From: Promethearchaeota archaeon
Lineage (GTDB): Archaea > Asgardarchaeota > Lokiarchaeia > Sigyniarchaeales > SOKP01
NCBI GenBank assembly: GCA_019058015.1
Contig: JAHLWH010000123.1
Span: forward strand, 1-27,358
DNA: 27,358 bases
Direction of reading: 5' to 3'
Part shown: positions 8,585-17,695 of the stretch, in pieces
Layout: each line of letters starts with the position of its first letter
How positions within the stretch are numbered: the first letter of the stretch is position 1
Translations under genes and position numbers: made by a program
The notes under the pieces: model-generated
Seen by the model: only the letters and a program-made list of their open reading frames with translations
Told to the model about the DNA's origin: nothing
Database searches by the model: none

Positions 8585-9130
8585 TTATTCTAAAAGCATT
8601 TGAATAAGATCTGATTTAATCTCATCAAAATTATTACGATTCAAATTATATAATTTGATATCCTTCATTTGAAGTAGCATTTCTTTAATTGGATGCCTTA
8701 ACTTTTGACCTATTGTTGCCAATATTGAATTATTGGATTTAAAGATTTCAGAAATCAAGGAGATAAACTTTTTAGAATATAATTCCATTTTTCCTATCTC
8801 ATCTATTATTATTAGATTATTAGAATTGTTAATTGAAAAGCTTTCAAAACATTTTTCGAGAAACTGTTCAAACTCATCAACAAATACATTATAATTACCC
8901 ACCATAAATTTAGTTTTTTTATTTAATTTACGAGATAACCAACATTCATTTTTTAAATTTATATCAATTGCTCTAAATCCTATCCGTTTTTGACCTTTTT
9001 TAACCTCAGTAGTTATAAAACCAAAAATTTTAATATTCATTTTTTTAAGTTGAATAGAGATCTGAGAAACAAAAGTTGTTTTACCACATCTAGGAGGACC
9101 AGTTATTAAAATTTTAAGCCTTTTACTCAT
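8585..9130 (-). CDS. Nucleoside-triphosphatase, THEP1/NTPase_1 family
   Basis: ILITGPPRCGKTT, GFITTEV..RIGF, IIIDEIGKME. Confidence 0.92.
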   Translation of the reverse strand: MSKRLKILITGPPRCGKTTFVSQISIQLKKMNIKIFGFITTEVKKGQKRIGFRAIDINLKNECWLSRKLNKKTKFMVGNYNVFVDEFEQFLEKCFESFSINNSNNLIIIDEIGKMELYSKKFISLISEIFKSNNSILATIGQKLRHPIKEMLLQMKDIKLYNLNRNNFDEIKSDLIQMLLE

Positions 9131-9922: not shown

Positions 9923-10243
9923 TTAAATATTATTTGAACTCTCAATTGAAAAATTCTTAAAACATTTCTCAAGAAAATCATCAAATTCATCAATAAACAC
10001 ATTATAATTGCCCACCATGTATTGAGTTTTTCTATTGATTTTTCGAGATAACCAACATTCATTGTTTGTATTGATATCAATTGCTCTAAATCCTATCCTT
10101 TTTTGATCTTTTTTAACTTCTATAGTAATGAATCCAAAAATATTTTTGTTCTTATTTTTAAGTTCAGAAGAAATCTTAGAAATTAAAGTAGTTTTTCCAC
10201 ATCGGGGAGGGCCAGTAATTAATATTTTTGAATACTTTTTCAT
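9923..10243 (-). pseudogene. 5' fragment of a second THEP1-family NTPase, truncated just before Walker B
   Basis: Colinear with the first ~106 aa of 8585..9130 (about 70% aa identity by eye); stops at SSNNI and homology does not resume. Confidence 0.85.
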
Positions 10244-10339
10244 ATTTTCTAACAATCCTTTAGTTATATAAATTAAATTTTTATTTTTTAAAATTTAAAT
10301 CAATACTTTTAAGAGATACCTATAATAAAATTTCATATA

Positions 10340-11613: not shown

Positions 11614-11889
11614 TTGAAAAGAATGCCTAAAAAAGAACTGTTTATAAAACGCGTTTATGAAATAGTCAATGAATTGAAAATACCACTCATAGATGAACGA
11701 GTTTATGAAGATGTAAGTTTTTCTGGAAAATTAGCGATAGCGAGTGTAAGATTTACATTTGAAGAAGATGAATCTGTTATAAGAGGGTTTTTGGGTTTAG
11801 CCGAGTATTTCCACACAGTTGTTATTAAATCTAAGGATAAATTTTTCATACCCCATGCTTCAATACTCTTTCAGCTTCAATCGGCGTAA
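11614..11889 (+). CDS. Hypothetical protein (start possibly ATG 11623)
   Basis: Compact alpha/beta-looking ORF with GAGGA upstream and a T-tract downstream. Confidence 0.7.
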   Translation: MKRMPKKELFIKRVYEIVNELKIPLIDERVYEDVSFSGKLAIASVRFTFEEDESVIRGFLGLAEYFHTVVIKSKDKFFIPHASILFQLQSA

Positions 11890-12159: not shown

Positions 12160-12804
12160 TTGCCTTCTGATGAGAAAACAATTACACGGGTTATCAAGTA
12201 TCTACGTAAAAGCTTAGGTGATTTATCTGAAGTTTTACAAGATACAGTTGATCAAATAAATGACTTTGGTAAATCCTTGAAAAAAGCAGAGAATGATATT
12301 AAAGGAGTAAAAGTTGAAAAAGGAAAAACAATTAGTTCTTCTTCAGTAAAGCTAACTCCGGAAGTAGAAGCTGGTGGTACTGCAAAAACACAAGCCGCAT
12401 CTACTTTATTCGCTTTATTGGGTGGAGGTGGCGCAAAAACTACTGCCGCTCCAGTAGCTGCAGCAACACCATCTGCACCATTATCAGGACCGCCTAAAAG
12501 ACCAGGACCACCTACAAAAGCTGGGCCACCTGCTAAATCAGGACCACCTTCAAAAAGTTTACCTCCCCCACCAAAATTGCCACCAGCTCCAGGACAAGCA
12601 GGACCACCTGCTAAGTCTGGTGCAGTAGTTTCAGCTCCTTCATTTGCAAAACGTGCCGGACCTCCTGTAGCACCATCTCTTGGAACAACTCCAGCTGCAC
12701 CTAGTCCAGCTGTTGCATCCCAAGCAGGAGGAAGTTTAAGTACTCTAAGAGATGAAATGTTAGATGAATTAAATCGTTTAAAAAAGATTATGCGCGGAGA
12801 TTAA
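12160..12804 (+). CDS. Proline-rich protein: N-terminal coiled coil, GPP/PPPP linker, C-terminal WH2/VASP-like helix
   Basis: GTGA RBS 6 nt before TTG; repeated (A/S)GPP(A/T/S)K units; LPPPPKLPP; tail LRDEMLDELNRLKKIM. Confidence 0.8.
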   Translation: MPSDEKTITRVIKYLRKSLGDLSEVLQDTVDQINDFGKSLKKAENDIKGVKVEKGKTISSSSVKLTPEVEAGGTAKTQAASTLFALLGGGGAKTTAAPVAAATPSAPLSGPPKRPGPPTKAGPPAKSGPPSKSLPPPPKLPPAPGQAGPPAKSGAVVSAPSFAKRAGPPVAPSLGTTPAAPSPAVASQAGGSLSTLRDEMLDELNRLKKIMRGD

Positions 12805-12979
12805 ATACTTATTATTTAATTTTATATTTAGTTTGATTAATAATTAAGATACTTTAACTTAAATTGAAGTAGTTGTTGGATTTTAAAAATTTTCTTCAAG
12901 TTTTTAATTATTAATTTATTAATCTGAGAGTGTTTTTTTTTAATAAATTTTTAATATTACAGCAAGAAAGTTATATCAT

Positions 12980-13726
12980 ATGCCAGAAAAGCGTTTTATT
13001 ATATGTGAAGATGATGTTCCAATAGTTGTTCCTAAGAGAATTATGGTTTTTGCAGGACATCCGGATGATGAAATAGTAAGTTGCGGTGGAACACTCCTAA
13101 AATACTTGGAAATGGGCTCGGAAATTTGTGTTGTTGTTGCTACTGCTGGATTAGGAGGATATGCTAAGAAAGAACAAGAAGATACTATTTCAACTCAAAG
13201 AGAAAATGAATTAAAAAAATTATCAGAAATTTTAAGATGTGAATTTATAGAGTTAGAATATACTTCTTTAGAAATAAATCGTTCGAAAATATCACATATT
13301 ACAAATTTGATTAGAGATTATAAACCTCATTTAATCCTAATACCTCATCACACTGATTTTCATCGAGTGCACCGAAATTTGTCATTCATTTCTCGGGAGG
13401 CAATATATCATTGTTGTACTGGCAAAGCATATGGAGGACATGAACGATCTTGGATACCATACGGTGTTTATTATTATGAGAGTCCTTCTTGCAAGTTTCA
13501 ATATATTGAAAGTTCAGTCTTTATTATCGTAGATATTGAAGAATATTGGGAAAAGAAAAAAGAAATATTTAATCAAGTTTATGTCTCACAAAAAGAAGTA
13601 TTATCGCGCGTTTTAGATTGGGCAGAGGACACCGCTATATTAAGGGGAAATGAAATAAATTCAAAGTATGGTGAGGGATATATCCCAGAAACTACATATG
13701 TACCGTTAAGGATATTATTAGTTTAA
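12980..13726 (+). CDS. PIG-L/LmbE family deacetylase
   Basis: VFAGHPDDE..CGGTL, RENE, DFHRVH, VDI..WEKK. Confidence 0.92.
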   Translation: MPEKRFIICEDDVPIVVPKRIMVFAGHPDDEIVSCGGTLLKYLEMGSEICVVVATAGLGGYAKKEQEDTISTQRENELKKLSEILRCEFIELEYTSLEINRSKISHITNLIRDYKPHLILIPHHTDFHRVHRNLSFISREAIYHCCTGKAYGGHERSWIPYGVYYYESPSCKFQYIESSVFIIVDIEEYWEKKKEIFNQVYVSQKEVLSRVLDWAEDTAILRGNEINSKYGEGYIPETTYVPLRILLV

Positions 13727-13768
13727 AAAAAGATAAAATTTAATATGTATTTCAATTAGTTTAAATTA

Positions 13769-14908
13769 TTGAGGGAAGAAATAGAAATAATGGGAAATGT
13801 AACAATAATCTTGGACATAGGACAATTTTCAACAAAAATTGGTTTTGCCGGTGAAGATCATCCGAATAATGTTTTTTTTACATTAGTGGGGTTACCGAAA
13901 TACCAAAATGTAGATCTTACATTAAGCAATCAGATTAGTGAATTATGTATAGGTAATGAAATCCAAGATGCAATGGGGTTGTATAAGCTCTTCCATCCGA
14001 TACAGAATGGTAGAATTCAGGATTGGAATTATTATAAAAAAATTCTTGAGTATATATTTTATAATCTACGTGTTGATCCAATTGTAACTAATGTATTATA
14101 TGCTGTCCATCCTTTAAGTCCAAAACAAGATAAAAGAAGACTATTTGAGATATTTTTAGAAAAATTTAATTGTGCTAGTTTTTATCCAGTTTTAGATTCA
14201 CTTCTAACGCTTTATTCGGGCGGGTTTCAAACAGGTTTGATTATTGAAATTGGAGATAGTGGCACTAGAATTGTTCCAGTTTATGAAGGTTTTCAGCTAT
14301 CGCATGCTATTAAGATATTAGACCTTGGGGGTAATTTGATTACTGAGTTTATGGAATATCAATTAAAACAAGCTGGATTTACTGCAGATTCATCTGTTAA
14401 GAAACAAATTATCCGAGTTATCAAAGAAAAAGCATGTTTTATTTCATTGGATTTTAAGGAAGATATGAAACGTTATGAAGAATATAGAAAACAATTCTCA
14501 TTACCAGATGGTGAAATCTTAGAAATAGATAAGCTTAGATTTTTAATTCCTGAATTAATCTTTAATCCCTCACTTTATAATTTAGAAATTTCTCCATTAC
14601 ATAAAGCAATTTTAGAATGCATAGAAGAGTGTGATGTAAATATTAGACCAAAATTACTAGGCAATATTTTTCTTTCCGGGGGTTCATCAATGTTTCCAAA
14701 TTTTAAGTCTAGACTCTATAAGGAATTAGAATTATCTTTGGCTAAAAAGAAAAAGAAAATGCAAATTGTTAAAATAATTGCTCCTAAAGAACGTATGTTT
14801 TCGGTTTGGATTGGAGGATCAATATTAGGAATGATCCCTGAATTTTCAGAAAGTTGGGTTACGCGAGATCAATATTATAATGATGATATTCCAGAAAATT
14901 TATTGTAG
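13769..14908 (+). CDS. Actin-family protein (Asgard actin-related; start probably ATG 13790)
   Basis: IILDIGQFSTKIGFAGED, HPIQNGRIQDW, EIGDSGTRIVPVYEG, IKEKACF, LPDG, LSGGSSMFP, SVWIGGSIL. Confidence 0.95.
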   Translation: MREEIEIMGNVTIILDIGQFSTKIGFAGEDHPNNVFFTLVGLPKYQNVDLTLSNQISELCIGNEIQDAMGLYKLFHPIQNGRIQDWNYYKKILEYIFYNLRVDPIVTNVLYAVHPLSPKQDKRRLFEIFLEKFNCASFYPVLDSLLTLYSGGFQTGLIIEIGDSGTRIVPVYEGFQLSHAIKILDLGGNLITEFMEYQLKQAGFTADSSVKKQIIRVIKEKACFISLDFKEDMKRYEEYRKQFSLPDGEILEIDKLRFLIPELIFNPSLYNLEISPLHKAILECIEECDVNIRPKLLGNIFLSGGSSMFPNFKSRLYKELELSLAKKKKKMQIVKIIAPKERMFSVWIGGSILGMIPEFSESWVTRDQYYNDDIPENLL

Positions 14909-15551: not shown

Positions 15552-16133
15552 TTAAATTTTTATCTTAAATGGTAATTTATAATAGGGTGTTTTAAATTTT
15601 AGCACTTCATTAAATATTCTGAGATTGGGCTCATATACTTGAAGGTAAGGTGGTTTTTCATTTCTTTTAGGATTTATTTTAGATATAAAAGTGTGAGGGA
15701 CATTAGCATTTACTTTTATACTAACACCAATTTGATATTCAAATGCAATTAAATCATCCACTGTTAAATTATTAATTATCTCATTAATTTTCAAAATTCT
15801 CTTTTCATAATTCATTATGTTTAATCTAGAGATAATTCGGTTGGCTAGGTTAGGCACAATTAAATAAGCTATCCCTAATGCTTTCTCTTTTGAAATTAAT
15901 TGCACAACCCATTCGGGAAATGGATGGCTTTCTAAATATTGTTCTTCTTCAATATTTAGAACTAAATCACCAACTAAAAAAGTCCCACCTTTATCAAAAT
16001 TAAATCTAGGTTTGAAATTTTTTAAACCTGGTGGAGCAAGTTGAATTTCAAATAAATGTTTGAAATTTTCTTCTCTTTCAATATAATCTTTTAATCTAAT
16101 AATAGATTTTATATTATTAACATTCTCAGACAT
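15552..16133 (-). CDS. Cupin-fold protein, ureidoglycolate lyase (AllA)-like
   Basis: LESHP..E and LIAFEYQIGVSIKVNANVPH resemble the LERHP and L.AF...G...GVWH motifs of that family. Confidence 0.55.
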   Translation of the reverse strand: MSENVNNIKSIIRLKDYIEREENFKHLFEIQLAPPGLKNFKPRFNFDKGGTFLVGDLVLNIEEEQYLESHPFPEWVVQLISKEKALGIAYLIVPNLANRIISRLNIMNYEKRILKINEIINNLTVDDLIAFEYQIGVSIKVNANVPHTFISKINPKRNEKPPYLQVYEPNLRIFNEVLKFKTPYYKLPFKIKI

Positions 16134-16253: not shown

Positions 16254-16598
16254 ATGGATAATATTGATGATTTATCTAAAATTGAGGATATATATTATAA
16301 ACCTAATTACACAATGTTATTAAATCGTATTCAAAGAATTAAAGATGCTAGAAAAAATAAACTCATAGAAATCATGTTAGACGGCCATTGGCATTCAGAA
16401 AATGAATTAGTTAGGTTTGCAAAAAGATTTGGCTATATTGGTGTGGTAACATTAAGTACAATGATGACTTCCTTAAAAAAAAAAATTGATTCAAATTTTT
16501 TAATTAGAAAATCTGTAAATAATATGAATTATTACAAGATTTCGGATAATTATGTTGGGTTAGCACGTGCAGCCTTCACAGATTATAGATCTCTATAA
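16254..16598 (+). CDS. Hypothetical protein, probable winged-helix
   Basis: LIEIMLDGHWHSENEL, then a helix and a LIRK..YYKI wing pattern. Confidence 0.65.
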   Translation: MDNIDDLSKIEDIYYKPNYTMLLNRIQRIKDARKNKLIEIMLDGHWHSENELVRFAKRFGYIGVVTLSTMMTSLKKKIDSNFLIRKSVNNMNYYKISDNYVGLARAAFTDYRSL

Positions 16599-16658: not shown

Positions 16659-17138
16659 TTAGGACTTTTTTAAAATTTTTATCGAAATTATATTTAAAAC
16701 AAGGATTATATATAGTAAATAATATCCAAATCCAAAAAATGCAGTAGATAAGCTATTAAATATAACAAAAATATAATCTAAAGTATAAATAAATAAGGTT
16801 AGCAATATAAATAATATATTAAACTTATATAGTTTTTTTGAATGTTTAGGATTTGATTTAGGGGACGATGCCATTATTCCAAACAATCCAGTTAGAAAAA
16901 ATAGCAGCCAAATAGATATTGCTATGAAATTTTCAATCGAACTAAATCCAAGTGATGTATATCCAATATCATTAGAAATATAGCCCCAAGAAAAGTATTC
17001 TACATTATTAATGATCAAAATTGAAAAATTTAAGATGGAATTAGCTGTCTCATTTGAAAAACTAAATGGAACACCTGCAATAAACGCTAATATTATTGAA
17101 AGGAATCCAGCTGCAAATCCAGTTTTTCTTAATTTCAT
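16659..17138 (-). CDS. Four-TM membrane protein
   Basis: Four hydrophobic segments; first loop with FSWG; last TM preceded by FGFGYYLL. Confidence 0.75.
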   Translation of the reverse strand: MKLRKTGFAAGFLSIILAFIAGVPFSFSNETANSILNFSILIINNVEYFSWGYISNDIGYTSLGFSSIENFIAISIWLLFFLTGLFGIMASSPKSNPKHSKKLYKFNILFILLTLFIYTLDYIFVIFNSLSTAFFGFGYYLLYIILVLNIISIKILKKS

Positions 17139-17182: not shown

Positions 17183-17695
17183 TTATTCTGTTTCAAGGGG
17201 ATGACTGCGTATGGCAATTAAAGCGAGTATTAAATTAATTATTAATACATAATAACCATTTCCGAGAGAGGTAAATAAACCCATAAAATCTATTGCAATA
17301 CGAATTAACTCAATACTATTTAGCGGTATAAAAATTGAGATATAAATTATCACAATAAGTATTAATAATGAATTAAGGGACATTATTGCCTTACCTGACA
17401 TCCTTTCCATTGTACTTCCCACTATAGTTATGATTCCAGTAATTATCATAAAAAGATTTAACATAAAGAAACTGATTAAATTAGCTTCTAACCATGATTG
17501 AACCACTAATTTTGATTGGTCGATGGTTCCCCAGATAAAAAAATCAATATTATTATTACTGAATAAACTTAGTGAAATTGACGCATAAGAAGAAATTCCA
17601 GAGTCGAAGTAAATTCCTAAAGGAATAGACTGAAGAAAACTAATAATAATACTTAGAATTCCTGAGCAAAATCCTATTTTATTCATAAATGTCAA
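17183..17695 (-). CDS. Four-TM membrane protein, paralog of 16659..17138
   Basis: Shared K.GF..G.LSII, F.WG and G.GYY.L motifs. Confidence 0.75.
   Translation of the reverse strand: MTFMNKIGFCSGILSIIISFLQSIPLGIYFDSGISSYASISLSLFSNNNIDFFIWGTIDQSKLVVQSWLEANLISFFMLNLFMIITGIITIVGSTMERMSGKAIMSLNSLLILIVIIYISIFIPLNSIELIRIAIDFMGLFTSLGNGYYVLIINLILALIAIRSHPLETE

Follow-up and report, generated by a model that had tools for sequence, protein, structure and literature searches.

What does a small proline-rich protein do beside an actin-related gene in an Asgard archaeon? The question is raised by contig JAHLWH010000123.1 of a Promethearchaeota archaeon (assembly GCA_019058015.1), which was analysed over positions 1 to 27,358; this whole stretch of 27,358 nucleotides (nt) is referred to as the window. 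The gene in question (12160–12804, + strand) encodes a protein of 214 amino acids (aa), here called PP, the proline-arm adaptor. A preliminary description took it for a proto nucleation-promoting factor with a WH2/VASP-like tail. Our own answer, held tentatively, is that PP is a modular adaptor, or tether, of an undescribed Asgard family, in which an oligomerising or anchoring helix and a flexible arm carry an end helix that would dock on a conserved partner, most likely in the groove of an actin.

PP starts at a TTG codon that lies 6–7 nt downstream of a Shine-Dalgarno-like word, GAGTGAT. In the low-GC window, the strand opposite PP carries no open reading frame (ORF) of at least 60 aa. Glycine-rich ORFs of 143–251 aa run antisense to the proline-rich region in relatives of higher GC content (loci L087, L090, L092, L093, L094, and L095), where gene callers could choose them over the true PP gene.

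PP is predicted by AlphaFold2, on a 53-sequence alignment, to be composed of three helices, outside which the confidence is low. The N-terminal long helix (residues 3–48; 12166–12303, + strand) has a predicted local distance difference test score (pLDDT) of about 96. It shows a heptad pattern, with hydrophobic residues (L/I/V/M/F) at 11 of the 14 a/d positions in the best register and a hydrophobic moment (muH) of 0.53, and residues K17, L19, L22, L26, I33, F36, and L40 are invariant among 25 aligned relatives. It is a probable oligomerising or anchoring coil. The second helix is short (AKTxAASTLFxLL, residues 75–87; 12382–12420, + strand) and predicted with low confidence; its residues L83 and L87 are invariant in all 53 sequences.

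The arm that follows (residues 95–190; 12442–12729, + strand) is basic, rich in proline, and disordered, with pLDDT mostly below 60. Proline accounts for 28 of its 96 residues, nine are lysine or arginine, and none is aspartate or glutamate. The arm carries four GPPxK repeats, the motif LPPPPKLPP (residues 134–142; 12559–12585), and the motif PSFAKR (12637–12654); LPPxPKLPP as well as F162 and K164 are kept in the alignment of 25 relatives. The protein terminates in ...LRDEMLDELNRLKKIMRGD. The putative docking helix (residues 193–211, LSTLRDEMLDELNRLKKIM; 12736–12792, + strand) is predicted with a pLDDT of about 95. This end helix is 19 residues long and amphipathic (muH 0.44). The N-terminal coiled coil, the proline-rich linker, and the terminal sequence noticed in the preliminary description are all borne out by this analysis.

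PP belongs to a family that is real, conserved, and Asgard-specific. A word-indexed search yields 173 relatives at E ≤ 1e-3 among 5679 candidates, all named 'hypothetical protein', all without a Pfam domain, and all from Lokiarchaeota, Odinarchaeota or Promethearchaeota. When 1.84 billion cluster representatives are scanned exhaustively with HMMER, 31 of them match the family at the same threshold, and in the ESM Atlas PP falls in an unnamed cluster of 357 Promethearchaeota proteins without a Pfam family. The window protein itself matches no Pfam family at E ≤ 0.01 in an hmmscan. No description of the family was found in the full-text literature, the coverage of which stops short of the supplementary tables of PMC13716822.

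The blocks kept among 25 aligned relatives are the N-terminal helix, TVSTSS, AKTxAASTLFxLL, LPPxPKLPP, PSFAKR, and the tail AGGxLSxLRDEMLxELxRLKKIMRG, and the number of GPPK repeats differs. Because helices and short motifs are conserved across these relatives, the layout of PP is more than chance. The end helix is the best-conserved block of the family, near-invariant in this alignment; once distant members are added (53 sequences), only L83, L87, P141, E199, and M200 are invariant. Two relatives from family f9 (L099 and L100; 266–268 aa; families are numbered here, f1 being that of the window) have an N-terminal transmembrane helix with a coiled coil, then a proline-rich stretch and the tail ...DLRREMMDELNRLKRLIGRA. 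A further representative, of 549 aa, starts with a transmembrane segment and is extended at its C-terminus; it is possibly a fusion or the product of mis-assembly. Among 195 candidates of 376–2000 aa, no longer protein with the PP end helix was found at E ≤ 0.01, which is weak evidence. We also looked at a possible second copy of the end helix in the genome; the sole other match (E 0.14) is internal to a 555-aa zinc-ribbon protein and was rejected.

The family profile finds PP in 160 of 400 Asgard genomes. It is present in 117/134 genomes of f1, in all genomes of f3 (14/14), f5 (3/3), f7 (2/2), and f9 (3/3), in 12/19 of f19, and in 2/4 of f27. It was not detected in f13 (0/31), f15 (0/12), f16 (0/22) or three further families combined (0/89), where the absences may reflect the reach of a profile built on Loki-type members. 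Several metagenome-assembled genomes titled Odin-, Thor-, Hod- or Hermodarchaeota attach to loci that match the coordinates of f1 genomes; locus L056, for example, titled 'Candidatus Odinarchaeota', is G256:C10:7890-8567 of f1. Because their loci match f1 genomes, such titles are unfit as proof of a wide spread.

How would such a protein work? In the reading we favour, the N-terminal helix would oligomerise or anchor PP, the basic polyproline II arm would serve as a flexible spacer and as a platform for proline-binding partners, and the end helix would dock in the groove of a highly conserved partner. Because the anchor changes, to a transmembrane base in f9, while the arm and the tail stay, the terminal helix is taken to be the working end of the tether. 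Its partner must be strongly conserved. The likeliest site, by analogy only, would be the hydrophobic groove on a protein of the actin fold, above all the Lokiactin-type actin, which is universal; in the window's own family, the neighbouring actin-related protein (ARP)-like paralogue may be a further partner. To actin as the partner, taken alone and judged by analogy, we would give about a third of full confidence.

Templates for such docking would be arcadin-2, which binds crenactin through its C-terminal helix, the ParR–ParM pair, and the WH2 helices that dock on actin. According to PMC5173319, the last 17 residues of arcadin-2 bind the hydrophobic groove of crenactin and depolymerise filaments, the crenactin:arcadin-2 complex has a dissociation constant of 31 nM, and the same groove is used by ParR, thymosin, and WH2. 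Like PP, arcadin-2 (Pyrobaculum calidifontis, PDB 5LY3) is a small archaeal protein without an enzymatic domain and with a conserved C-terminal α-helix, which is its functional element and, in PP, the best-conserved block. Arcadin-2 is encoded near an actin homologue, as is PP in 77 of 80 near loci and in none of 16 distant ones (see below). However, arcadin-2 lacks the proline-rich arm and the long heptad helix of PP, and groove binding is proven for arcadin-2 but proposed by analogy for PP. The solved arcadin-2 peptide is below the 20-residue minimum of the PDB sequence library that we searched; the likeness drawn here is one of design. The parallel drawn to arcadin-2 and ParR is an analogy and not a homology class. 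A second analogy of design is offered by FtsZ, in which a disordered linker ends in a short conserved peptide that docks on membrane anchors including the actin-fold FtsA; PP shares the linker and the conserved C-terminal peptide but has no tubulin/FtsZ core.

Is there a link to actin in the genomes themselves? An actin homologue (PF00022; 13769–14908, + strand) starts 965 bp after the PP stop on the same strand, with a PIG-L/LmbE-type deacetylase gene (PF02585, E 3.6e-21; 12980–13726, + strand) between them, both as noted in the preliminary description. We compared 80 near loci, which were pulled from species genomes with two exact end-helix peptides and hence form a kin-biased sample; at least 13 of them, including L056, coincide in coordinates with f1 genomes. 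The ARP-like gene lies downstream of PP on the same strand in 77 of the 80, a hint towards actin. Two of the three misses stop at the contig edge, and L027 truly carries other genes there. The PIG-L gene intervenes in 53 loci; the other 27 lack it, and there PP and the actin-like gene are directly adjacent. This PIG-L gene is probably not part of the PP system.

The kin bias of the near loci counts against the actin reading, and so do the points that follow. The near block also retains orf114, a small conserved protein encoded 3' of the actin-like gene (16254–16598, + strand; no Pfam family past the cut-off), in 76/80 loci, and a topoisomerase gene in 72/80. Because these genes are kept as well, the adjacency in near loci is ordinary inherited synteny, and orf114 is part of the local synteny block only. 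Among 16 distant loci from eight other families (f3, six loci; f4; f5; f7; f9, two; f18; f19, three; f27), none has an actin gene within about 9 kb of PP. The adjacency is therefore confined to a single family. In one f3 genome, the orthologue of the ARP-like paralogue (50% identity) lies 44 kb from PP, and in single genomes of f5, f7, f19, and f27, the best actin matches have 40–44% identity, the level of Lokiactin. The ARP-like paralogue is narrower in range than PP. Moreover, the steadier neighbour of PP is another gene, orf91, and not actin. A Lokiactin co-immunoprecipitation published in 2026 recovered profilins, gelsolins, an ARF GTPase, and BAR proteins, as reported in PMC13716822, and a PP-like protein is not listed in section 7 of that paper.

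In 14 distant neighbourhoods, 106 of 126 neighbouring ORFs were scanned (20 ORFs of L094 and L100 being omitted), and these comprise no actin, one gelsolin-domain gene, and two Ras-family GTPases, the remainder being mostly housekeeping genes. The gelsolin-domain gene lies 3.8 kb from PP in one of the 14 neighbourhoods and is a hint towards actin. The preliminary description had made its case depend on linkage to actin across Asgard genomes, and this linkage, at 77/80 near loci and 0/16 in eight other families, does not hold beyond the window's own family. An 'actin operon' argument should therefore not enter the annotation of PP.

At f3 loci L086 (8054–8635, − strand) and L088 (7763–8311, − strand), a gene for a Ras-family small GTPase lies directly upstream of PP in divergent orientation. 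Behind these GTPase genes are two proteins without assignment, of about 300 and 425 aa.

If PP has a partner that its gene neighbourhood reveals, this may be orf91 in a process unrelated to actin, with PP tethering or concentrating orf91 or orf91 regulating PP. We consider this unlikely overall, yet it is the alternative that survives best. The gene (11614–11889, + strand) encodes 91 aa and adjoins PP in 71 of the 80 near loci and in 7 of the 16 distant loci (f3, f5, f7, f19 three times, f27), with 67–97% identity among near relatives. Its orientation relative to PP is mostly divergent in near loci and convergent or tandem in distant loci. Because the orientation differs between loci, orf91 appears to be retained beside PP rather than merely inherited there. 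It is found in 178 of 400 genomes, and its spread overlaps that of PP without being identical: f1–f7, f19, and f27 have both, and neither is found in f13 (0/31), f15 (0/12) or f16 (0/22). The product is a confidently folded domain (AlphaFold2, pLDDT 90.1, predicted template modelling score 0.81) with the order helix–strand–helix–three strands and no recognised fold. It has no clear structural relative, the best matches being at E 0.25 in Foldseek against the PDB and at Z 4.3 in VIA-align over 48,161 chains, and matches as weak as these do not establish a new fold.

Several observations do not fit a partnership with orf91. In three complete f3 genomes, at least 25 kb separate the two genes. The transmembrane-anchored PP of f9 occurs without orf91 (0/3), while f21 (6/6) and f26 (3/3) have orf91 with no PP detected, and extra copies of orf91 are located elsewhere in many f1 genomes. 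The joint absence of PP and orf91 in ten f1 genomes was considered and rejected as evidence, since neighbouring genes are lost jointly wherever an assembly has a gap.

The gene for orf91 shows a further feature. In 8 of 68 evaluable near loci (L007, L024, L025, L039, L051, L053, L060, and L064), its homologue contains an insert that holds a stop codon (UAG or UGA) and is 30 nt long in six loci and 33 nt in two. The insert is always at the same codon site, between the codons for ...ELFI and KRVYEIV.... Locus L057 has a 30-nt insert at a different site, between IPL and IDERVY, and the window orf91 has none. The length of every insert is divisible by three. The fold of the insert is an 11-bp-type hairpin, separated by opposed loops of 4–5 nt from a 6-bp helix that the two exon-like flanks form with each other. 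The hairpin arms vary among the three insert variants by changes that preserve pairing. Its appearance is that of a mini-intron of bulge-helix-bulge-like type within a protein-coding gene. No report of introns of this type in Asgard protein genes was found in a search of the full-text literature.

We return to actin and ask whether PP might instead be the dedicated regulator of the neighbouring paralogue, its end helix lying in the groove of that protein as the WASP C helix does on Arp. The neighbour is a clear actin-family member (289.1 bits against a PF00022 cut-off of 27, E 5.8e-86) with a probable true start at the ATG at 13790, relatives beginning MGN.... Its closest solved relatives are conventional actins (E 1e-88 to 1e-80). 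The genome holds three actin-family genes, among which the highest PF00022 score belongs to the Lokiactin-like actin of contig C83 (56332–57444; 443.8 bits, as against 283 bits for the window gene), and the two proteins share 42% identity. The neighbour is not Lokiactin but a divergent ARP-like paralogue, as judged from these comparisons. All 76 full-length actins next to PP in near loci are orthologues of the window paralogue (58–92% identity, versus 37–43% to the C83 actin).

With a mean column identity of 78%, the paralogue shows strong conservation, and its changes are fixed in the orthologues. The first phosphate loop reads DIGQF, versus DNGTG in the C83 actin. In addition, two catalytic positions are changed, to aspartate at what we take to be Q137 in actin numbering and to arginine at what is presumably H161. 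Residue Q137 is also named in PMC5173319. The GGSSMF motif of the adenine pocket is retained. The fixed substitutions at the phosphate loop and at the Q137 and H161 positions suggest altered or lost ATP hydrolysis.

Conservation of this kind, together with the same-strand adjacency and the direct contact of the two genes in 27 loci, would suit a dedicated pair. However, PP occurs without an orthologue of the paralogue in the f5, f7, f19, and f27 genomes mentioned above, 44 kb separate the two genes in f3, and locus L027 has other genes in the actin position. In the window, a T-run after the PP stop and a 176-bp AT-rich gap before the PIG-L gene indicate that co-transcription is not required. 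PP is older and wider in range than the paralogue and is therefore not its dedicated partner; we give the idea only a slim chance.

An equally slim chance is given to a docking site outside the actin fold. Here the end helix would be a tail like MIM1 (MIT-interacting motif 1) and would dock on Vps4, at the MIT domain, so that PP would be an adaptor linked to the endosomal sorting complexes required for transport (ESCRT). As in ESCRT-III tails, the proline-rich linker of PP is followed by a leucine-rich amphipathic helix at the C-terminus, acidic where it starts and basic where it ends. The two Snf7-family proteins of the genome end comparably, in ...IKDLENELKELKESDD and ...LKDEIAKLKKELEE. In addition, Asgard Vps4 MIT domains are predicted, by modelling and assays described in PMC7240154, to bind MIM1 and MIM2. 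However, PP has no Snf7 core (PF03357), and the two Snf7 genes of the genome are located elsewhere. The MIM1 consensus is (D/E)xxLxxRLxxL(K/R), and the PP tail, compared by eye, fits it in no register: counting from D198 as position 1, L201 and K209 are the sole residues to agree, and if the first hydrophobic residue is taken to be M200, position 7 holds a glutamate and not an arginine. The tail profile also misses the ESCRT-III tails of the genome, reaching only the unrelated 555-aa protein noted above. No ESCRT gene is present in any neighbourhood examined.

The proposal that PP is a true homologue or proto-form of WH2/VASP nucleation-promoting factors, with a WH2 motif at its tail, is scarcely tenable, even though its layout of helix, proline-rich region, and amphipathic helix (R..ML..L, then LKKI) fits and Asgard actin, profilin, and gelsolin exist, with gelsolin linkers that carry WH2-like LKKT-type motifs according to PMC9433394. 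None of 25 PP members matches WH2 (PF02205), thymosin (PF01290) or VASP_tetra (PF08776) at E ≤ 10; the 23 Pfam families listed at this threshold are weak and amount to noise from coiled coils, DUF948 being one example. When the last 40 residues of PP are run as a profile against 177,635 PDB sequences, they give two chance matches and no WH2, WASP, VASP or thymosin chain.

The canonical WH2 pattern is R..LL..I..G..LKKV. The PP tail reads R..ML..L..LKKI from R197 and is three residues shorter, so that LKKI sits nearer the helix core; the preliminary description had itself flagged this spacing. In the AlphaFold2 model, LKKI is within the continuous helix 193–211 and not beyond a linker. The LKK is invariant in close relatives but replaced in distant members, which have IKEI, LRHV, LKSV, LKSI or LKGI. 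The tetrapeptide LKK[ITV] occurs in 304 of the 3640 genome ORFs of at least 100 aa, in 54 of them within the last 30 residues. Because it is this common in a lysine-rich proteome, it carries no weight alone.

PP shares with Ena/VASP proteins a proline-rich middle, short conserved helical motifs, a helix suited to oligomerisation, and the overall logic of a tether able to hold a partner on a flexible arm. However, PP has no EVH1/WH1 domain, its N-terminus being a single long helix without a Pfam match, and the heptad-rich helix that could oligomerise is N-terminal, whereas that of VASP is C-terminal. Nor is a VASP-type EVH2 region with its terminal tetramerising coil recovered: PF08776 gives no match, and the end helix of PP has 19 residues. 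The proline runs are short (GPPxK and one PPPP) as compared with long polyproline. With WASP/WAVE, PP shares the N-terminal helix, the basic proline-rich region, and a C-terminal amphipathic helix with LKK[I], but it differs in the WH2 profile, in the spacing and helicity of LKKI, in the loss of LKK in distant members, and in the lack of an acidic or tryptophan tail. We know of no Arp2/3 complex in these organisms. The tail may also resemble the F-actin-binding block of VASP and the WASP C helix.

PP would work like WH2 or Ena/VASP proteins but belongs to neither family, and a WH2 label should not enter its annotation. Of the proto nucleation-promoting factor, then, the resemblance in layout to WASP/WAVE or Ena/VASP stands, and the relationship to WH2 and VASP does not.

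Elsewhere in the window, two genes for THEP1-like P-loop proteins (NTPase_1) lie within 1.7 kb of each other (8585–9130 and 9923–10255, both − strand). The latter is shorter, an ORF of 110 aa that opens with an identical Walker A motif (GPPxxGKTT), and is perhaps a truncated duplicate. As compared with most relatives, the window lineage has extra genes among the actin-like gene, orf114, and the topoisomerase gene (15552–16133, 16659–17138, and 17183–17695, all − strand). One of these encodes a 193-aa protein without a Pfam match that is present in 2/80 loci only, and two similar small multi-pass membrane proteins are also among them.

What would a tether of this kind mean for Asgard archaea? 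These organisms have actin, profilins, and gelsolins, yet no known nucleator, elongator or membrane tether, as far as PMC9433394 and PMC13716822 go: the former says in 2022 of nucleation machineries that they 'have yet to be discovered in Asgard archaea', and according to the latter no Asgard actin nucleation or elongation factor is known as of 2026. Because PP is conserved, unnamed, and has the layout of a eukaryotic actin-assembly factor, it is a concrete candidate. In the boldest form, which we regard as distinctly improbable, the PP family would supply the actin-assembly factor still missing from Asgard archaea, as a minimal counterpart in function, or even a forerunner, of Ena/VASP or WASP-type proteins. 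Several flexible basic proline arms would extend from a base that is either oligomeric or anchored in the membrane. With their terminal helices, these arms would grip Lokiactin at the barbed-end groove, on monomers or on filament ends, and the proline motifs would recruit profilin–actin or another adaptor. The combined effect would be to drive or tether the growth of filaments at the membranes of cell protrusions. Should the end helix bind another target, PP would remain an Asgard-specific adaptor not described before, with a docking motif of unusual invariance and with a steady small neighbour gene of no recognised fold.

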